Shown here in pieces: positions 28,117 to 59,221 of a stretch of 64,000 bases of DNA (position 1 is the stretch's first letter; the number at the start of each line of letters is the position of its first letter). Source of the stretch: Gammaproteobacteria bacterium (GTDB lineage: Bacteria; Pseudomonadota; Gammaproteobacteria; CBDBNL01; JAAOII01); assembly GCA_965209035.1 (NCBI GenBank), contig OZ242372.1, positions 648,958 through 712,957 on the forward strand, given 5' to 3'. Under the pieces are notes generated by a model. That model worked only from the letters and a program-made list of their open reading frames with translations, was not told the DNA's origin and did no database searches. The translations under genes and the position numbers were made by a program.

Positions 28117-28255
28117 AGGATCTCACCTACTTTTCTTACTCTTAATAAAATTTTTTAAGGTTTCACCGGGCGGGCGGCTACCCGTATGCTATCAGCTGCT
28201 CGTTTATTCCCCTTCCCGTACCGGTCGGGGGTTATTTTGTTGACGACTTAAACAG

Positions 28256-28296
28256 AAGGACCTCTTGCCTTGAGAGGTTAAATCATTTATTTTTTG
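28256..28296 (+). terminator. Putative rho-independent terminator between convergent ftsH and acs
   Basis: Stem GACCTCTTG/CAAGAGGTT... followed by a TTTATTTTTTG run on the plus strand. Confidence 0.45.
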
Positions 28297-28300
28297 CGGT

Positions 28301-30262
28301 TTACTTACGGTTGCTTGCGGTTTGTTTGTGGCTTTTGATGAGATCATCCACAACGGAGGCGTCGGCAAGAGTGGATGTGTCTCCCAGTTCTTCGTGTTCG
28401 CCCGTTGCAATTTTGCGGAGAATGCGGCGCATGATTTTACCCGAGCGGGTTTTGGGCAGTGCGGGTGTCAACAGCAGAATATCCGGTTTGGCAATCGGGC
28501 CAATTTGCTCGCGCACAGTTTGAATTAATTCTTCTCGCAGAGAATTGGTGGGTTCCGCTCCCAATACCGGAGTAACATACGCATAAATACCCTGCCCCTT
28601 TATCTCGTGCGGAAAGCCGACCACGGCTGCTTCCGCCACCGCCGGATGGGCCACCAAGGCACTTTCTATTTCGGCTGTCCCCAGTCTGTGGCCGGAAACA
28701 TTAATGACATCGTCCATACGCCCGGTAATCCAATAGTAACCGTCTTTGTCGCGTCTTGCCATATCACCGCTAAAATAGTAGTTTTCAAAAGTACTGAAAT
28801 AGGTTGTCACAAAGCGTTCGTGATTGCCGTATATGGAGCGGGCCTGACCGGGCCAGGAGTCGCTGATCACCAGAGCGCCGTTCGCTTCGCCGGTCTGTTC
28901 CTCTCCTTTTTCATTCAATAATGCGGGCCGGACGCCGAAAAACGGCAGGGTCGCCGAGCCGGGCTTTAAGGGGGTGGCTCCGGGCAAGGGTGTTATCATA
29001 TGACCGCCGGTTTCGGTTTGCCACCAGGTGTCCACTATGGGAAGTGTGTTGTTGCCCAATACTTTGCGATACCAACGCCAGGCTTCCGGGTTGATTGGCT
29101 CGCCCACTGTTCCGAGGACCTTAAGACTCTTGAGAGAACATTTTTCATATATTTTGTCCCCTTCGCGCATCAAGGCGCGGATCGCCGTCGGTGCCGTATA
29201 AAACGATGCGACCTTGTGTTTGTCGATGATCTCGCCCCAGCGTGCGGAAGTCGGATAGTTGGGCAGGCCTTCATACATTAAAGTGATCGCGCCGTTGGCA
29301 AGTGGTCCGTAGACAATGTAACTGTGGCCGGTAACCCATCCCACATCGGCACCACACCAATAGACATCGCCGTCATGATAGTCAAAAGTATATTGATGCG
29401 TGATGGAACACCATACCAGGTAGCCGCCAATGGTATGCATTAATCCCTTGGGCTTGCCGGTAGAGCCGGATGTATAAAGAATAAAAAGAGGGTCTTCCGC
29501 ATTTAGAGGCTCCGGTGGGCAGTCCGCACTTTGTTCGGCAATCAGCTCGTGATACCAAACATCATTAATAGTATGGCCCGCGCGAAAAGGAATGTCGGCG
29601 TTTGTTGCCCGGACGACCAGGGTGTGCTTCACTGTTTTGGTTTTTTCCAGAGCCCTGTCCACATTTTGTTTGAGCGGAATACGTTTGCCACCGCGCACAC
29701 CTTCGTCCGCGGTAATCACCAGGTTGCTGTCGGAATCATTGATGCGTCCGGCCAGGGCTTCGGGCGAGAACCCGCCAAAAACAACCGAATGGATGATCCC
29801 CAGTCTGGCACAGGCAAGCATGGCGACAGCGGCTTCGGGGATCATTGGCATGTAAATGGTGGCAACATCTCCTTTTTTGTAGTTAAGCGATTTTAGACCG
29901 TTCGCCAGTTTGCATACCTCTGCGTGCAATTCTTTGTATGTGAGAGTCGCGTCTTTGTCGGGTGTGTCTCCCTCCCAAATGATGGCGACCTGATCGCCGC
30001 GTTTTGCCAGATGTCGGTCCAAACAATTATGGCATGCGTTAAGGACGCCGTCTTCAAACCATCGGATGTCTACCTTGTCGCGTTGAAACGATGTGTTCTT
30101 AACCTTGCCGTAAGGTTTAAACCAGTCCAATCGTCTGCCTTGCTCGGCCCAAAATTTTTCCGGGTCCGCCAAGGAAGCGGCGTACATCTCTTTATATTTC
30201 TTTGCGTCTATCCAGGCCTTTTTTGCCAAAAGGGCATCCGGTAAGTAAATGTTTTGACTCAT
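28301..30262 (-). CDS. acs: Acetyl-CoA synthetase (AMP-forming)
   Basis: 653 aa. Adenylate-forming motifs '[11 protein letters not shown]' and '[24 protein letters not shown]', and a C-terminal acylatable Lys region '[11 protein letters not shown]'. AAGGAG Shine-Dalgarno upstream. Confidence 0.93.
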
Positions 30263-30374
30263 AAATAATCTCCTTTTTTGTTTTGTTTATTAGTATCAAT
30301 TTATTTCGGTTATTTTACCAAAATTTTTTTGGTTTTGCCCTATTTTTGAATATGGTCTTGCTGTCTCTTTTTGA

Positions 30375-31674
30375 TGCATAGTCTCATAAAGGTTCTGGAC
30401 TCTGAGTTTGGTATTGTGCGTCCTCAGATCAAGCAGCCGGAGGTTCTGTCGGACGGGTCGAAAATAGATCCGGCAACGGGTCTTCGGTATGTGGAGCTAG
30501 ATGAATGAAACGGGCAAGAAGGACGGATAGCTGTTTTGCTCTCACCGCCGCAGACAGCGGAGGCTTGTTGTTGATAAAACTGTCTAGGTGTATCCGCTGG
30601 CGAGACGGTACGGTTTGTGAGGGCAGCCGGACTGCACATTGGAAATGAGAGGAACACGTTTACGCTACATTGGTTATCGCGTGCGCGGTTTCAATAAAAT
30701 GGTGGTTTTAGCAAACAAATATTCAAACATGTCTAAAACCACCAAAATCAAACTGGACACCTTAGCGTTCGCGCGCAAACATGGTGTCGCGGCGGCGCTG
30801 GATCATGCCGGGATCAGTCGTGCTACATTCTACGAGTGGCAGCGGCGTTTCCGTGAAGGCGGGGTCGATGAACTGGCGAACAACTATGGGTATCAGCCCA
30901 AGCGGTCCAACACCTGGCCACCGGCACTGATTGACAAGATCCGGTCTTGGCGACAAGAGCGACCGAATATCGGTCCCAATAAACTGGTCTGCTTGTTACC
31001 CGAATGGTGCCAGCAGCAGGGGCTGCCGGCACCCAGCCGGTCAACCATTGCCCGCATCATCGCTGATGCACCGGGTAAGATGCGGCACCAGTCATCGCTG
31101 ACCGAGCAGAAGAACCCGCGGCAAGGTGCTCCTCGCGAGCGCAAGGACATCTGCTTTGTTGCGGGCCGGAGAGGTGAATGTGTTGCCTTTGATACGCTCG
31201 TCCGCATCGTCGATGGCCGGCGCTTTTATTGGCATGTCGGCATTGACCTATTTTCCCGCTTCTCACTGGTCAGTGTCGACACCTCCGCTGCTTCGGCCAG
31301 TTCCGCCCGGCTCTTTACCGCCATGCAAAACATACTCGGCACTCGGATCGAAAAAGTCCTCACCGATAATGGCAGTGAGTTCGCCAAAGACTTTCACCGG
31401 ATCGTGACCGCAAACGGCAGCACCCACTGGTATACTTATCCAAGGAAACCGCAAATGAATGCACACTGCGAACGGTTTAATCGCACTCTCTGGGAAGAGT
31501 TCGGTTGTCATATGCGGCATCTCTTGGTTAAGGATATGCCGGCATTCAACGCCAAACTCATCGAGTGGTTGGCTTGGTATAATCTTGAACGTCCCCATTA
31601 TGCTCTCAAACAACTCTCGCCGATCCAATTTTTGCAAAAACAACAAAAGTCCAGAAATGGGTGGGACCATACAA
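30375..31674 (+). mobile_element. IS element copy 1 (IS481-like, 1300 bp)
   Basis: A 1300-bp unit repeated in direct tandem. Left end TGCATAGTCTCATAAAGGTTCTGGAC, right end ...GTCCAGAAATGGGTGGGACCATACAA (imperfect terminal inverted repeats sharing TTCTGGAC). It is flanked by TTTGA / TTTG and encodes a single HTH plus rve-type transposase. Confidence 0.75.
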
Positions 31675-31685
31675 TTTGTGCATGA
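30729..31685 (+). CDS. Transposase (HTH + DDE/rve integrase core), IS481-family-like
   Basis: N-terminal HTH ('ISRATFYEWQRRFREGG'), an rve core with 'D..D' and the C-terminal 'NAHCERFNRTLWEEF' E-motif. Single ORF with no frameshift. Confidence 0.8.
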   Translation: MSKTTKIKLDTLAFARKHGVAAALDHAGISRATFYEWQRRFREGGVDELANNYGYQPKRSNTWPPALIDKIRSWRQERPNIGPNKLVCLLPEWCQQQGLPAPSRSTIARIIADAPGKMRHQSSLTEQKNPRQGAPRERKDICFVAGRRGECVAFDTLVRIVDGRRFYWHVGIDLFSRFSLVSVDTSAASASSARLFTAMQNILGTRIEKVLTDNGSEFAKDFHRIVTANGSTHWYTYPRKPQMNAHCERFNRTLWEEFGCHMRHLLVKDMPAFNAKLIEWLAWYNLERPHYALKQLSPIQFLQKQQKSRNGWDHTICA

Positions 31686-32978
31686 TCTCATAAAGGTTCT
31701 GGACTCTGAGTTCGGCATTGTGCGTCCTCAGATCAAGCGGCCGGAGGTTCTGTCGGACGGGTCGAAAATAGATCCGGCAACGGGCCTTCGGTATGTGGAG
31801 CTAGATGAATGAAACGGGCAAGAAGGACGGATAGCTGTTTTGCTCTCACCGCCGCAGACAGCGGAGGCTTGTTGTTGATAAAACTGTCTAGGTGTATCCG
31901 CTGGCGAGACGGTACGGTTTGTGAGGGCAGCCGGACTGCACATTGGAAATGAGAGGGACACGTTTACGCTACATTGGTTATCGCGTGCGCGGTTTCAATA
32001 AAATGGTGGTTTTAGCAAATCAATATTTAAACATGTCTAAAACCACCAAAATAAAACTGGACACCTTGGCGTTCGCGCGCAAACATGGTGTCGCGGCCGC
32101 GTTGGATCATACCAGGATCAGTCGTGCTACATTCTACGAGTGGCAGCGGCGTTTCCGTGAAGGCGGGGTCGATGAACTGGCGAACAACTATGGGTATCAG
32201 CCCAAGCGGTCCAACACCTGGCCACCGGCACTGATTACCAAGATCCGATCTTGGCGACAACAGCGTCCGAACATCGGTGCCGGTAAACTGGTCTGCTTGT
32301 TACCCGAATGGTGTCAGCAGCGCGGGCTGCCGCTGCCCAGCCAATCAACGCTCTCTCGCATCATTGCCGATGACCCGGATAAGATGCGGTGCAAACCATC
32401 GCGGTCCGTGCCGAAACGCCCGCGGCATGGTGCTCCGCGCGAGCGCAAGGACACCCGCTTTGTTGCGGGCCGGAGAGGTGAATGTGTTGCCTTTGATACG
32501 CTCGTCCGCATCGTCGATGGCCGGCGCTTTTATTGGCATGTCGGCATTGACCTATTTTCCCGCTTCTCACTGGTCAGTGTCGACACCTCCGCTGCTTCGG
32601 CCAGTTCCGCCCGGCTCTTTACCGCCATGCAAAACATACTCGGCACTCGGATCGAAAAAGTCCTCACCGATAATGGCAGTGAGTTCGCCAAAGACTTTCA
32701 CCGGGTCGTGACCGCAAACGGCAGCACCCACTGGTATACCTATCCAAGGAAACCGCAAATGAATGCACACTGCGAACGGTTTAATCGCACTCTCTGGGAA
32801 GAGTTCGGTTGTCATATGCGGCATCTCTTGGTTAAGGATATGCCGGCATTCAACGCCAAACTCATCGAGTGGTTGGCTTGGTATAATCTGGAACGTCCCC
32901 ATTATGCTCTCAAACAACTCTCGCCAATCCAGTTTTTGCAAAAACAACAAAAGTCCAGAAATGGGTGGGATCATACAA
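31679..32978 (+). mobile_element. IS element copy 2 (IS481-like, 1300 bp), separated from copy 1 by 4 bp (TTTG) and followed by TTTGA
   Basis: Near-identical ends to copy 1. One internal segment is highly diverged from copy 1. Confidence 0.75.
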
Positions 32979-32983
32979 TTTGA
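32033..32983 (+). CDS. Transposase (second copy)
   Basis: Same architecture as the copy-1 transposase. Confidence 0.8.
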   Translation: MSKTTKIKLDTLAFARKHGVAAALDHTRISRATFYEWQRRFREGGVDELANNYGYQPKRSNTWPPALITKIRSWRQQRPNIGAGKLVCLLPEWCQQRGLPLPSQSTLSRIIADDPDKMRCKPSRSVPKRPRHGAPRERKDTRFVAGRRGECVAFDTLVRIVDGRRFYWHVGIDLFSRFSLVSVDTSAASASSARLFTAMQNILGTRIEKVLTDNGSEFAKDFHRVVTANGSTHWYTYPRKPQMNAHCERFNRTLWEEFGCHMRHLLVKDMPAFNAKLIEWLAWYNLERPHYALKQLSPIQFLQKQQKSRNGWDHTI

Positions 32984-33016
32984 CCTCATCCCGGTATTTT
33001 TGACTTATAATACAAG

Positions 33017-33057
33017 AAATATTATTATATTTAATTAACAACAAAGGAGTAATTATT
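33017..33057 (+). promoter_or_regulatory. Putative sigma70 promoter (TTGACT-17-TATTAT) and AAAGGAG Shine-Dalgarno for the symporter gene
   Basis: Motifs read at 33017-33049, beginning about 40 bp after the IS right end. Confidence 0.35.
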
Positions 33058-34986
33058 ATGCAAGCTGCAGTTCTTTGGCTGTGGGTTTTAGTTGTCCTGT
33101 ATTGGGCATATTGCATCTACTGGGGTATCCGGTGTATGCGTATGTCCAAGACAGCGGGAGATTACATGATTGCGGGGAGAAGTCTTCCAATCTGGGTATA
33201 TGTCCTGGCAGCAACTGCCACATCCTTTTCCGGCTGGACTTTTGTCGGCCACCCCGGTCTGTTATACACATCCGGGTTTCAATATGCTTACGCATCTTTT
33301 TATGCTATTACTATTCCGCTTACCGGTCTTCTGTTCCTTAAAAGGCAATGGCTGCTCGGCAAACGTTTCGGTTATGTAACACCGGGCGAAATGTTCGGTG
33401 ATTATTTCCGTTCCAATGCCATTCGTGTGTTGATCGTAATAGTTGCGTTTATATTTTCCGTGCCTTATCTGGGCATTCAGTTACGTGCCTCCGGCTTTTT
33501 GTTTCATGTATTGACAAACGAGGCCGTAGGTATTAACGCAGGGATGATCCTTCTTTCCGCGGTGGTGATACTTTATGTAGCATCCGGTGGTCTGAGGGCT
33601 GTTGCCTATGTGGATACATTGCAAGCAGTTTTGCTGGCATTCGGTATTCTACTCATTGGCTTTATCTCTCTGACTGCAATAGGCGGGATAGAAAGCTTTT
33701 CACGAGGGATTTTCCAGTTATCTCAAATTGATCAAAACCGAACACCGGCGGGTTATAGCCATTACATCGCCATTCCGGGAGTCATTCAGTTTGTATCCGC
33801 GGGTGCCAAGGCACAAGGCGGAGCATGGACCGGGGCAATGAATCTGACTTATATGTTCGCTCTTATGGGTATTCAATCCTCGCCGGCATTTTCTATGTGG
33901 GCATTTGCCAATCAAACACCGCGTTCCTTCGCACCTCAACAGGTATGGGCGTCTTCTTTTGGTATTGGTTTCATTCTGATCGTCTTTACCGCGATTCAAG
34001 GTATGGGCGGACATCTGCTTGGAGCGGATACGGCTTTCAACGCCGCATACCCAAACAGTGTGAATAATATCCTGGGAGATGGCCTTGGCGGCTTGGATCT
34101 GCTTCAAGTTGCCGGCGCCCAAGGGCAGTTGGTTCCGCGCTTGATTCAGTCTCTGGGCGATACTGCTCCGTTTCTGGTGGGTCTGCTGGCAGTCTGTGCG
34201 CTTGCCGCAATGCAATCCACAGGTGCGGCTTATATGTCCACGGCCGGTACCATGCTGACACGCGATGTCCTCTTACATTTCTTCAATCCGAAAATGTCGG
34301 ACGGCACACAAAAATTTTGGGCGCGTCTCAGTGTGTTAGTTATTGTTGGCTTGGCATTGGTTGTTGCGATCACTTCCACGGATGCTCTGGTTCTGCTCGG
34401 CGGGCTGGCAGTCGCATTTGGTTTTCAAATGTGGACAGCTCTCATGGCGATATGCTACTTTCCTTGGCTTACCAGAACCGGTGTTGTCGTTGGCTTGGTT
34501 TTGGGACTGATTGCCGTGATGATGACGGAAAGCATCGGCGTATCCTGGTTTGGCATAGAAGCCTGGGGTCGCTGGCCTCTGACATTGCATTCCGCTTTCT
34601 GGGGTATGCTGTTTAACCTGCCTGTGGCAATTGCCATTTCGTTCTTCACGCAGAACGCGGAAGATGCCGCACACAAAAATAAGTTCCACGACTTTTTGCG
34701 CGCCCACAGCGGCGTTCCGCAAGAGAAGAGAAGTTTGGTGCCGGTGGCATGGATCTTCGCTTTGGTGTGGTTCTTCTTTGGCGTAGGACCCGGTGCGGTC
34801 ATTGGCAATACTCTGTTTGGCAATCCCAACGATATTAACACCTGGCTTTTTGGCATCCCTTCCATTTGGACATGGCAAATCATCTGGTGGGCTATCGGGG
34901 TTTGCATGATGTGGTTTCTTGCTTATAAGATGGAATTTTCCACCTTTGGCGAGAAAGCGGACAGCATCAAGACCCTAAAAGAATAA
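33058..34986 (+). CDS. Sodium:solute symporter family (SSS/SSF) transporter
   Basis: 642 aa with at least 13 predicted TM segments and a 'GRSLP' motif near TM1 characteristic of the SSS family. Substrate unknown; the neighbouring acs suggests possible acetate or monocarboxylate uptake, which is inference only. Confidence 0.72.
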   Translation: MQAAVLWLWVLVVLYWAYCIYWGIRCMRMSKTAGDYMIAGRSLPIWVYVLAATATSFSGWTFVGHPGLLYTSGFQYAYASFYAITIPLTGLLFLKRQWLLGKRFGYVTPGEMFGDYFRSNAIRVLIVIVAFIFSVPYLGIQLRASGFLFHVLTNEAVGINAGMILLSAVVILYVASGGLRAVAYVDTLQAVLLAFGILLIGFISLTAIGGIESFSRGIFQLSQIDQNRTPAGYSHYIAIPGVIQFVSAGAKAQGGAWTGAMNLTYMFALMGIQSSPAFSMWAFANQTPRSFAPQQVWASSFGIGFILIVFTAIQGMGGHLLGADTAFNAAYPNSVNNILGDGLGGLDLLQVAGAQGQLVPRLIQSLGDTAPFLVGLLAVCALAAMQSTGAAYMSTAGTMLTRDVLLHFFNPKMSDGTQKFWARLSVLVIVGLALVVAITSTDALVLLGGLAVAFGFQMWTALMAICYFPWLTRTGVVVGLVLGLIAVMMTESIGVSWFGIEAWGRWPLTLHSAFWGMLFNLPVAIAISFFTQNAEDAAHKNKFHDFLRAHSGVPQEKRSLVPVAWIFALVWFFFGVGPGAVIGNTLFGNPNDINTWLFGIPSIWTWQIIWWAIGVCMMWFLAYKMEFSTFGEKADSIKTLKE

Positions 34987-35819: not shown

Positions 35820-35862
35820 CGGGTCTATGCCATGCGGGGCTGTGCGGGGCCGTGCGGGGTTA

Positions 35863-57374: not shown

Positions 57375-57447
<73 letters not shown>

Positions 57448-57470
57448 AAAAAAATAGACTGTGAACTCTA

Positions 57471-58661
57471 TTATTTTATGACTTTGGCCACCACGCCCGC
57501 ACCAACAGTCCGACCGCCTTCCCGTATGGCAAAGCGCAACCCTTCTTCCATGGCAATAGGAGCGATCAATTTAACCAACATCTTGATGTTATCTCCCGGC
57601 ATGACCATTTCTACCTTGTCCGGTAACTCGACCTCGCCGGTAACATCAGTGGTCCGAAAATAAAACTGCGGCTTATAACCCTTTATAAACGGCGTATGTC
57701 TTCCGCCTTCGTCTTTGGTCAGAATGTAAACCTCGGCTTCAAACTCAGTATGCGGAGTGATACTGCCGGGTTTGGCAAGCACCTGTCCGCGCTCCACGTC
57801 TTCGCGCTTTGTCCCTCTCAACAAGACGCCCACATTCTCGCCGGCTCTGCCTTCATCCAAAAGTTTTCTAAACATTTCAACGCCGGTGCAGGTCGTCTTT
57901 GTTGTATCCTTGATACCGATAATTGCCACTTCCTCATGAACCTTAACGATCCCGCGCTCAATTCGCCCGGTGACCACGGTCCCACGGCCTGAGATGCTGA
58001 AGATATCTTCTATGGGCATCAAAAACGGCTTGTCTATGTCTCTCTTAGGTTCCGGAAAATACTCGTCAAGCGTTTCCACCAGTTTAATGACAGAACCCGC
58101 CCCCATCTCACTCGTATCTCCCTCCAGAGACTTGAGTGCGGAGCCCACAATAATCGGAGTATCGTCACCGGGGAACTCGTATTTTGTCAGAAGTTCTCTG
58201 ATTTCTACTTCCACCAGTTCCAATAGTTCTTTGTCGTCGACCTGATCGGCTTTGTTAAGATAAACCACAATTCGGGGGACCCCTACCTGGCGTGCCAGAA
58301 GGATGTGCTCCCGAGTCTGCGGCATAGGACCGTCGGCGGCGGAAACCACCAAAATAGCGCCGTCCATTTGGGCCGCACCGGTAATCATGTTTTTGATGTA
58401 GTCCGCGTGTCCCGGACAATCCACATGCGCATAATGTCTCTTGTCACTTTGGTATTCCACATGCGAGGTTGCTATGGTAATACCGCGTTCTTTTTCTTCC
58501 GGAGCATTGTCAATACCCGCAAAAGTCAGAGCATCTCCGCCCCATTTGTCGGCACAAACTTTTGTAAGAGCGGCCGTCAAAGTAGTTTTCCCATGATCCA
58601 CATGACCGATGGTTCCCACATTAATATGGGGTTTTGTTCTTTCGTATTTTTCTTTTGCCAT
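57471..58661 (-). CDS. tuf: Elongation factor Tu
   Basis: '[31 protein letters not shown]' and full-length identity pattern to EF-Tu. Confidence 0.98.
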
Positions 58662-58716
58662 TTTTTATCTTCTAAAATAAAATTTAATTTTTATAAAATC
58701 CAATCGTCAAACTCAA

Positions 58717-58789
<73 letters not shown>

Positions 58790-58822
58790 AACCTCATTCT
58801 TATTTGCCGTTACTTTAACTTA

Positions 58823-58893
58823 AGCGGGTAGCGGGGATCGAACCCGCATTCTCAGCTTGGAAGGCTGATGTGCTACCATTATACCATACCCGC
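58823..58893 (-). tRNA. tRNA-Gly (UCC)
   Basis: Cloverleaf with anticodon TCC. Confidence 0.85.
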
Positions 58894-59057
58894 AAGAATT
58901 GCATAAAACATAAGACTCGCACAGCACATGATACAAAAGCATTAATAAAATAATACCCGACAGAGAATGACTCGCACCAACGCAACACAAGAATTATAAC
59001 AAAAAAAACTAAAAAAACACGCTTTTTAATGATTTTTTATCAAATCTTTGTTAAAAA

Positions 59058-59139
59058 TGGAGAGGGCAGGATTCGAACCTACGAAGCACGAGGCGGCAGG
59101 TTTACAGCCTGCTGGGTTTGACCGCTCCCCAACCTCTCC
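59058..59139 (-). tRNA. tRNA-Tyr (GUA), long variable arm
   Basis: Cloverleaf with anticodon GTA and an extended variable arm. Confidence 0.85.
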
Positions 59140-59148
59140 CCAATAATA

Positions 59149-59221
<73 letters not shown>

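Follow-up and report, generated by a model that had tools for sequence, protein, structure and literature searches.

Two apparently functional, non-identical copies of an IS481-like insertion sequence (IS) were identified between acs and a sodium:solute symporter gene in a 64,000-nt stretch of a Gammaproteobacteria bacterium genome, which as a whole is referred to here as the window. The copies, designated A and B, meet in an "IS dimer"-type junction (IRR-5 bp-IRL), which we attribute with moderate confidence to the joining of two copies that had been distant from each other. The IS type is ordinary, and the arrangement is of a known kind. The placement of two IS481-like elements in head-to-tail tandem between these two genes, as proposed in the original prediction, is confirmed by the repeat structure, the protein domains and the family match.

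Architecture of the IS pair and its flanks

Self-comparison of the window revealed a direct repeat with a start-to-start distance of 1304 bp spanning positions 30375-32978. The two copies (Table 1) align without gaps in head-to-tail orientation, and their base-by-base alignment, suggested earlier as a check, contains 65 differing positions in 1,299 bp (95.0% identity). The identity amounts to 97.8% in the leader, 95.9% in the 5' part of the open reading frame (ORF), 82.2% in the central 230 nt and 98.8% in the 3' 509 nt. As judged from the sister proteins, A and B represent two sequence subtypes, each of which has further members in this genome; this recurrence, together with the 65 differences, indicates that the tandem is not an assembly duplication. 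Given the different subtypes and the central block with only 82% identity, it is improbable from the sequences that one copy was recently derived from the other.

The 15 listed members of a 20-member protein cluster are all encoded on one 2.18-Mb contig, and two of them are the proteins of copies A and B. The listed sister proteins are identical up to the residues ...NGWDHT and diverge after this point, with tails of 1-77 aa. The sister copies are mosaics of the subtypes (e.g., copy A combines a subtype-A centre with subtype-B-like residues FSLVS), which shows that the copies do recombine or undergo gene conversion. No tandem copies were found among 80 metagenomic loci, most of which are IS-sized contigs where repeats collapse.

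Table 1. Coordinates of the IS pair, its ends and the neighbouring genes in the window
Feature	Position	Strand	Details
IS copy A	30375..31673	+	1,299 bp; alignment with B; ends are where 15 sister proteins diverge, and L006 copy
IS copy B	31679..32977	+	1,299 bp; alignment with A; protein is database protein P0128
IRL of copy A	30375..30401	+	TGCATAGTCTCA...TTCTGGACT; imperfect inverted repeat with 31648-31673
IRR of copy A	31648..31673	-	Reverse complement TGTATGGTCCCACCCATTTCTGGACT
Left flank of copy A, TTTGA	30370..30374	.	Differs from ATTTG after A and after B
Spacer ATTTG, IRR of A / IRL of B	31674..31678	.	5 bp; also left direct repeat of copy B
Right direct repeat ATTTG of copy B	32978..32982	.	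Sequence
Transposase gene, copy A	30645..31685	+	346 aa; Pfam rve / rve_3 / HTH_32 / HTH_28; NCBIfam IS481 best match
Transposase gene, copy B	31949..32983	+	344 aa; same Pfam domains; TGA 32981-32983 in flanking DNA
acs (acetate--CoA ligase)	28301..30262	-	NCBIfam NF001208 1042 bits, TIGR02188 983 bits, above cut-offs; Pfam ACAS_N / AMP-binding / AMP-binding_C
Sodium:solute symporter (SSF family)	33058..34986	+	Pfam SSF 106 bits; orthologues in L009-L011 at 87% identity
Extended -10-like TGGTAAAAT upstream of acs	30312..30320	-	Outside IS, 54 bp from IS left end; putative
Promoter-like TTGACT-17-TATTAT upstream of symporter	33000..33028	+	Consensus scan, 10/12 matches; outside IS; putative

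To fix the element ends, TGCAT...ATACA, the window copies were compared with ISKpn28, 47 relatives, one metagenomic copy and upwards of 15 sister copies. Each copy carries imperfect terminal inverted repeats of 26-27 nt, beginning with TGCAT and ending with ATACA. In copy A, 9-10 of the terminal 12 nt match, as does an inner 9-nt block TTCTGGACT, and the same design is present in the 47 relatives. Within the 64-kb window the IS end motifs occur only at the positions of copies A and B (shuffled sequences are expected to contain 0). The last bases ...CATACA lie at 31673 in copy A and at 32977 in copy B, one base before the boundary drawn in the original prediction, and the spacer is therefore the 5-bp ATTTG. 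The ~1300-bp units split by TTTG that had been described earlier are thus refined to units of 1,299 bp; TTTG is literally present at 31675-31678, inside the true spacer. At the junction, an A-type right end (GGGACCATACA) is joined to a B-type left end (TGCATGA).

Copy B is flanked by the perfect 5-bp repeat ATTTG, which is the sole exact direct repeat abutting element ends, whereas copy A is without a duplication. The fixed short duplication expected for the IS481 family was 5 bp in every case where it was seen: the metagenomic copy in L006 (3731-5027) has a perfect 5-bp duplication ACACG, perfect 5-bp duplications were found in 9 cases among the 47 relatives, and ISKpn28 has AGTAT and, in a dimer, CCTCC. 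The outer flanks of the pair, TTTGA on the left versus ATTTG on the right, do not match, and transposition of the pair as a single unit was rejected for this reason. The bracketing TTTGA taken earlier for a target-site duplication is literally present on both sides (30370-30374 and 32979-32983), but the right occurrence is 1 nt off the IS end, i.e., out of register and against the 5-bp rule. Such a recurrence has an estimated chance of about 1%, a hint at a possible relationship between the outer flanks; they may represent, for example, a 6-bp duplication TTTTGA/ATTTGA that is atypical and carries a single mismatch (5/6 matching).

Transposase genes and family assignment

Both copies encode an intact transposase with HTH and DDE (rve) domains as one continuous ORF preceded by a 270-nt leader. 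The catalytic residues D183, D241 and E276, with spacings of 58 and 35 (DD(35)E), do not vary in an alignment that includes 13 relatives, and the ATG start at 30645 is backed by relatives with 40% identity, in which the first 28 residues are conserved. In neither copy does the element contain a stop codon for the transposase gene. The gene of copy A is closed by the in-frame TGA at 31683-31685, which constitutes nt 5-7 of the copy B IRL. Stop-less transposase genes are also found in 45/47 relatives, in ISKpn28 and in all sister copies, and a stop triplet occupies left-end nt 5-7 in 47/47 relatives; in the window element it is TAG or TGA.

The IS481 model NF033577 of NCBIfam is by far the best IS family match, with scores of 178.3 bits (A) and 172.3 bits (B) that fall below its cut-off of 224; the IS3 model is next at 106 bits. 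The closest named relative is the IS481-like ISKpn28 (33% amino acid identity over 98% of the protein). IS481 family elements are about 1-1.3 kb long (ISfinder range), and the window element (1,299 bp) is at the long end of this range because of its leader; the relatives measure 1,084-1,149 bp, with one of 1,228 bp. The terminal inverted repeats of IS481 elements start with 5'-TGT (bioRxiv 10.1101/2022.12.17.520857). In the window element the IRR begins with TGT and the IRL with TGC, as in 36/47 relatives, and we counted these ends as agreeing with the family. Sequence comparison therefore supports its assignment as a divergent member of the IS481 family, on the ISKpn28-like branch, that has no name yet.

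The IS3 family shares with the window element a related DD(35)E rve core (NCBIfam IS3, 106 bits, below its own cut-off of 160), TG-starting ends and short duplications, and IS3 dimers and circles are known. In contrast to the single ORF of the window element, IS3 has two ORFs (orfA/orfB) fused via a -1 frameshift. Membership in IS3 was rejected on the basis of HTH and DDE domains in one frame and a score below the cut-off.

Several candidate features in and around the leader were also considered. Rfam searches, run on the region as well as on the whole window, returned five tRNAs located far away and a sub-threshold "mir-3047" match, the latter being merely a 12-bp hairpin at 30700-30746. This hairpin has one compensatory pair relative to L008, and it was discarded as a family feature (mean folding energy of -14.2 in 53 relatives versus -14.7 in a control region). 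A role in masking the start codon was dropped, since the true start is upstream at 30645. The leader as a structured RNA was likewise rejected (MFE z-score of -1.64, not significant), and the leader resembles neither other parts of the IS nor any of the fetched loci apart from its own close copies. A second, ancestral IRL beside the start codon gave no convincing alignment. An upstream ORF is present at 30505-30648 and is not claimed as a gene.

Genomic context of acs and the symporter gene

The pair begins 112 bp from the acs start (30263-30374) and ends 80 bp from the symporter start (32978-33057), as had been stated in the original prediction. The insertion was proposed there to have entered a control region shared by the two divergent genes. 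Neither of the two nearest relatives available has acs next to the symporter gene. The symporter orthologues in L009-L011 have aconitase as their upstream neighbour, and the upstream neighbours of the acs orthologues in two relatives are a 1,254-aa fn3 protein and an ABC transporter. In a relative with a 2.17-Mb sequence, acs and the symporter gene are divergent and ~37.7 kb apart, and the window is colinear with this relative on both sides. Topologically, this arrangement is that of a simple deletion. The ~38-kb block between the two genes includes aconitase, an S49 peptidase, an ABC transporter (ABC-FtsX) and the fn3 protein; of the intervening genes, those tested are all absent from the window. 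The two relatives used for synteny are ~90% identical to each other at the amino acid level versus ~80% to the window organism, and for this reason parsimony does not assign the ~38-kb change to a lineage.

Since the two genes are apart in relatives and the flanks are colinear, the pair is probably the trace of a deletion or rearrangement associated with ISs rather than of an insertion into a shared control region. By the same comparison, acs and the symporter gene were probably brought together by IS activity, not split by an insertion, and ~38 kb, including aconitase in the relatives, were probably lost or moved at this locus. The idea of shared acs/symporter regulation is to be dropped for this reason.

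The proposal that the IS pair displaces regulatory sites and can supply outward promoters was not supported either. Putative promoters of both genes lie outside the ISs (Table 1), and for acs the motif is conserved, with TGGTA(A/G)AAT at the aligned place upstream of acs in the relatives L013 and L014. No outward-facing or junction promoter was detected in a consensus scan of the IS pair that covered one promoter type, and no terminator-like sequence is located between the copy B transposase gene and the symporter gene. Both genes thus appear to keep putative core promoters, while the DNA farther upstream would have been replaced by IS sequence.

Origin of the junction and comparison with known IS dimers

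We propose that copy A resided first upstream of acs and that copy B, with its duplication ATTTG, resided first upstream of the symporter gene, both in the same orientation and tens of kb apart. Transposase would then have connected A, through its right end, to a point 5 bp beyond the left end of B, by the end-joining chemistry of IS circles and tandem dimers in copy-out-paste-in elements, and the intervening DNA would have been removed or relocated, leaving A-ATTTG-B-ATTTG. In a close variant, B would have inserted in the 5 bp abutting the right end of A, the flank of A having been lost earlier via an IS-mediated deletion.

The same final sequence results from transposase joining and from homologous recombination followed by an abutting insertion. 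The latter route, in which recombination between same-orientation copies or an adjacent deletion would have left A with mismatched flanks before B landed next to it, is in our view rather unlikely. It yields exactly what is observed, with a perfect ATTTG repeat on B and none on A; the mosaic sister copies attest to recombination or gene conversion, and insertion beside resident inverted repeats is documented for IS30 and IS911 (PMC9333248). It requires, however, one event more than direct joining and an insertion exactly where a resident IS ends, a target preference that the IS481 family is not known to have. Abutting insertions do not seem to be frequent either, because the 3-residue tail of a tandem junction occurs in 1/15 listed sister proteins, copy A itself. 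The entry of an IS or of the pair into an ancestral acs/symporter intergenic region with duplication of TTTGA, followed by local duplication or dimerisation, was the scheme of the original prediction; its empty site would be an uninterrupted ...CTCTTTTTGACCTCATCC...-type sequence between adjacent acs and symporter genes. The TTTGA on both sides, readable with its one-base offset as the 6-bp duplication discussed above, speaks for this scheme, as do the ISKpn28 dimers, which document the passage from a single IS to DR-IS-DR-IS-DR, and a synteny difference whose direction parsimony does not fix. We nevertheless consider it improbable: the ...ACA ends and 5-bp duplications of sister copies, relatives and ISKpn28 make the outer flanks a mismatch, the copies are of two subtypes that differ strongly in the central block, and other genes adjoin the symporter in three relatives and acs in two. 

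An assembly artefact would require a single IS or two distant ISs to have been chained wrongly, e.g., via reads from excised IS circles. Repeats of 1.3 kb in ~20 copies are indeed hard to assemble, and reads from a circle junction would carry IRR-5 bp-IRL. Nonetheless, an artefact is very improbable in view of the 65 differences between the copies, a junction of an A-type right end with a B-type left end that is not obtainable from a circle of either single copy, a contig that is a single 2.18-Mb sequence, and the same architecture in many independently sequenced ISKpn28 plasmids.

Returning to the joining of distant copies, a stronger version would be that the pair is the direct transposase product of an excision of ~38 kb and that this IS481 branch is built for such junctions, which we put forward only as an unlikely extension. 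The stop triplet at left-end nt 5-7 would close the gene after exactly three extra codons, an outcome restricted to right and left ends that meet across a 5-bp spacer, as in a circle or tandem dimer. If true, this would provide sequence-level evidence for circle or dimer (copy-out-paste-in-like) intermediates in the IS481 family, and the form of the element would set the C-terminus of the transposase. Together with the window tandem and the ISKpn28 dimers, the family-wide pairing of a stop-less gene with a left-end stop triplet gives a hint on the movement of IS481 elements, for which circle and dimer intermediates are not established.

The pair resembles the tandem dimers (IS30)2 and (IS21)2 and those of IS911, IS2 and IS256 in its head-to-tail copies, an IRR abutting an IRL (31673 is the last base of A and 31679 the first of B) and a spacer of the length of the target duplication. 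As in copy-out-paste-in dimers, the spacer sequence is derived from the flank of one end, ATTTG recurring as the 5 bp directly after B. The pair differs from them in that its copies are diverged variants and that a junction promoter, with a -35 in the IRR and a -10 in the IRL, was not detected; no sigma-70-like site spans 31640-31710 either by consensus scan or by eye. Abutted ends are hyper-reactive in IS30, IS21 and IS911, and if the same holds here, the locus may be a rearrangement hot spot. IS30 produces tandem dimers when ends are joined within a single IS or between two ISs far apart, and it also targets resident inverted repeats; dimers from two distant copies lose the intervening DNA (PMC9333248). 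The IS481 family is absent from the listed families shown to use copy-out-paste-in (PMC9333248), and our literature search found no direct reports of IS481 circles or of copy-out-paste-in in this family; a circle of ISKpn21 (IS481/IS3-related) carries a 5-bp spacer from the left flank (bioRxiv 10.1101/2022.12.17.520857).

The closest parallel is provided by ISKpn28, whose IRR-5 bp-IRL tandem dimers occur in at least 25 Klebsiella plasmid records. The two elements have in common TG...ACA ends, a 5-bp duplication, head-to-tail dimers with a 5-bp spacer, and a single ORF that ends with ...W-x-H-T at the element tip and continues into the flank, with a stop triplet at IRL nt 5-7. ISKpn28 is shorter (1,096 bp with a 58-nt leader versus 1,299 bp with a 270-nt leader). 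The ISKpn28 dimer examined, CCTCC-IS-CCTCC-IS-CCTCC, with its first ORF closed by TAA at IRL nt 5-7, consists of identical copies and the same 5 bp at three positions, in contrast to the 95%-identical window pair with TTTGA at its outer left. This mismatched left flank and the 65 differences fit a dimer of two different copies, not of one. A natural heterodimeric IS481-like tandem is now on record together with the ISKpn28 dimers of public plasmids.

Structure and coding content of the two elements

The interval between a bona fide acetate--CoA ligase gene (acs, left) and a sodium:solute symporter gene (right) contains two IS481-like elements, A and B, in tandem, as the original prediction held; their starts lie 1304 bp apart in a direct repeat (30375-32978) whose units align with zero gaps. 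Their end motifs are confined to these units in the 64-kb window, and shuffled sequences are expected to contain none. Each unit has a single long ORF whose product combines N-terminal helix-turn-helix (HTH) domains with an rve integrase core, in which the catalytic residues D183, D241 and E276 are invariant in alignment with relatives; both transposase genes are intact. Among curated family models, IS481 was best (178 and 172 bits) and IS3 second (106), both copies scoring under the IS481 cut-off of 224 bits; the predicted family stands broadly, as a divergent IS481-like element of the branch of ISKpn28, an element of Klebsiella pneumoniae plasmids, but below the model threshold.

The transposase falls in a 20-protein cluster encoded entirely on one 2.18-Mb NCBI contig, with two members being the products of A and B themselves. 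The 15 listed members are identical through ...NGWDHT, beyond which their tails (1-77 residues) are wholly divergent, indicating that the ORF has no stop codon within the element and that the element ends at the Thr codon ACA (31673 and 32977). The ATG assigned in A is the true start, since the first 28 residues are kept in 40%-identical relatives.

Features of the tandem pair, its surroundings and related loci (window coordinates unless a locus is named)
Feature	Position	Strand	Length	Remark
IS copy A	30375-31673	+	1,299 bp	
IS copy B	31679-32977	+	1,299 bp	
A/B termini			26-27 nt	imperfect inverted repeats
Transposase start codon	30645 (A), 31949 (B)	+		ATG
Leader uORF	30505-30648 (A), 31809-31952 (B)		47 codons	
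Hairpin	30700-30746 (A), 32004-32050 (B)		12 bp	perfect; TGGTGGTTTTAG / CTAAAACCACCA
TTTGA	30370-30374		5 bp	abuts A
ATTTG, spacer	31674-31678		5 bp	between A and B
ATTTG, repeat	32978-32982		5 bp	directly after B
TTTGA, right	32979-32983		5 bp	begins one base past B end
Extended -10-like site	30312-30320	-		TGGTAAAAT
Promoter-like site	33000-33028			TTGACT-17-TATTAT
FtsH-acs interval	28117-28300		184 bp	PEP carboxykinase gene here in L013, L014
tRNA genes	57375-59221	-		cluster of five
Decayed copy/fragment	L006 968-1915	reverse		
Decayed copy/fragment	L006 3731-5027			92%-identical copy
Decayed copy/fragment	L006 5394-5429	reverse		
Decayed copy/fragment	L006 7126-7371			
Decayed copy/fragment	L007 3427-4775			

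The leader from the left inverted repeat to the start codon measures 270 nt, whereas it is 34-58 nt in ISKpn28 and in 46 of the 47 distant relatives surveyed that have recognisable inverted repeats; no similarity of the extra ~230 nt (30402-30644) to anything else fetched was detectable. Other long leaders occur only in the related loci L008 (about 295 nt) and L025 (175 nt). The leader uORF has GGAG 8 nt ahead of its ATG, and its stop codon shares bases with the transposase start codon (ATGA, 30645-30648), an arrangement typical of translationally coupled genes. All five close copies keep this uORF intact, but each of the five nucleotide differences between A and the metagenomic contig L006 alters an amino acid, and the uORF is missing from the 45%-identical element of L008. 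Typical relatives (L033, L040, L044, L053 and L019, first about 50 nt) carry a short stem-loop between the left inverted repeat and the ATG (compare 30398-30410 in the window), with the Shine-Dalgarno sequence in its 3' arm (e.g. CTCCTTG...CAAGGAG-ATG) and stem sequences varying between elements; from sequence this looks like sequestration of the ribosome-binding site against read-through transcripts. The hairpin in the 5' end of the transposase gene encloses the conserved internal Met-29 codon and shows one compensatory pair relative to L008; no family-wide folding signal was found for it among relatives, and a sub-threshold mir-3047 match was rejected as a spurious product of the hairpin.

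Flanking genes and promoters

Insertion into a shared acs/symporter control region, as originally proposed, is not supported by the neighbours in relatives. The closest symporter orthologues (87% aa; L009, L010, L011) have aconitase and S49 peptidase genes upstream, divergently oriented, and nucleotide similarity of the window to these loci starts only at 33037, extending across the next two genes. For acs, the nearest orthologues (80% aa; L013, L014) are preceded by genes for a 1,254-1,264-aa fn3-containing protein and for an ABC/FtsX transporter. The 2.17-Mb contig that includes both L012 and L013 shares the gene order of the window on the left (NusA-RimP-FtsJ-FtsH-acs) and on the right (symporter-p71-TPR-MalK-SDR-...-permeases); there, the divergently oriented symporter and acs genes have about 37.7 kb between their starts, and none of the tested genes of this interval is present in the window. 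The window (35820-35862) also lacks the genes that L012 (1155-7098) has between the TPR gene and malK: one for restriction-modification, one for a DNA methylase, and a second symporter paralogue whose C-terminal 112 residues are ~86% identical to those of the first.

In these alignments the difference has the layout that a simple deletion or excision would leave, with endpoints coincident with the IS pair; its direction is unproven, since the two synteny relatives are closer to each other (about 90% identical) than to the window organism (about 80%). The tandem is probably tied to this rearrangement of about 38 kb.

The 112 bp left of A keep the extended -10-like site, which aligns with TGGTAGAAT and TGGTAAAAT upstream of acs in two relatives, and the 80 bp right of B hold the promoter-like site. 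IS481 itself is documented to carry outward promoters (PMC9330008); the promoter scan found no outward-facing site at either IS end and none across the junction, and no terminator-like site was found between the B ORF and the symporter start. The core promoters of both genes thus appear intact, with only DNA further upstream altered, and the predicted regulatory effects are not supported.

Origin of the tandem

The spacer, predicted as TTTG, proved to be ATTTG, the boundaries having been one base off; its presence on both sides of B gives B a textbook 5-bp target duplication. The proposed TTTGA duplication around the pair is not supported, the right TTTGA being offset from the B end, and no matching 5-bp repeat flanks A or the pair as a whole.

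A and B differ at 65 of 1,299 positions, so they are not the assembly duplication envisaged earlier. Their two ends are 98-99% identical, and a central 230-nt block, which codes for the stretch linking HTH and catalytic core, is 82% identical (differing codons: 20 synonymous, 27 non-synonymous). Sister proteins from the same cluster carry both central variants, plus mosaics, so A and B are two subtypes of an IS that diversified and recombined within the source genome, and the pair is not a recent self-duplication. Contigs of metagenome sample ERZ25069786 hold several degenerate copies and terminal fragments (86-92% nt) disrupted by frameshifts and indels, among them a solo left-end-plus-leader fragment, so the IS is older than the source genome or has spread beyond it. 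The 92%-identical L006 copy has the same TGCAT...ATACA ends and a perfect 5-bp duplication, ACACG.

Most likely, the pair arose by joining of A, upstream of acs, to B, which, with its ATTTG duplication, would have lain upstream of the symporter and pointed the same way as A. The 3' end of the right terminus of A would have been joined 5 bp outside the left terminus of B, the reaction by which copy-out-paste-in elements produce circles and tandem dimers; this history predicts exactly TTTGA-[A]-ATTTG-[B]-ATTTG, and a deletion or excision ending at the pair would explain A lacking a duplication. The same final sequence would also result if homologous recombination or an adjacent deletion came first and B then inserted precisely at the tip of A, a history we consider less likely. 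For end joining there are parallels: IS30 forms dimers from two distant copies and also targets resident inverted repeats (PMC9333248), and the circle of the IS481/IS3-related ISKpn21 has a 5-bp spacer derived from the left flank (bioRxiv 10.1101/2022.12.17.520857).

Left-end stop codons and known dimers

With the ORF flush with the element end and a 5-bp spacer, the reading frame takes in nucleotides 5-7 of the left end that follows. This triplet is TGA in B, where it closes the A gene at 31683-31685 and gives it the tail I-C-A; A itself has TAG, ISKpn28 has TAA, and all 47 relatives have TAA or TAG. Most of these relatives have left ends TGCATAA... and right ends TGTAT...; in 45 the ORF runs open across the right end, nine have perfect 5-bp duplications, and only 37 have a stop triplet at the equivalent right-end positions. 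A circle or dimer would consequently always give the transposase a defined 3-residue tail, whereas ordinary insertions give an arbitrary one. We offer this as a hypothesis: the stop triplet may be selected or may simply belong to the inverted-repeat consensus. L008 has two successive left-end-like sequences 50 nt apart (2706-2780; TGAACAACCTCAAATCAAAATGG and TGCATAACCTCAAATCAAAATGT), with a stop triplet at nucleotides 5-7 only in the inner one.

ISKpn28 is the closest named element (transposase 33% identical over 98% of the protein; 1,096 bp, as against 1,299 bp in the window, with duplication AGTAT), and its ORF is likewise open-ended, closing ...WWTHT. A synthetic ISKpn28 IRR-5 bp-IRL query gave contiguous full-length matches in at least 25 PLSDB plasmids; pCAV1392-131 carries CCTCC-[IS]-CCTCC-[IS]-CCTCC with identical copies, and the first gene of the dimer closes ...THT-PPV-stop. 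Tandem dimers with a spacer of duplication length therefore recur in the IS481 family as a real product. This precedent and the stop-codon regularity are the most useful by-products of the analysis and bear on how IS481-family elements transpose. The arrangement in the window is an IS tandem dimer, a kind already known, differing from that of ISKpn28 in being a heterodimer without the left repeat.
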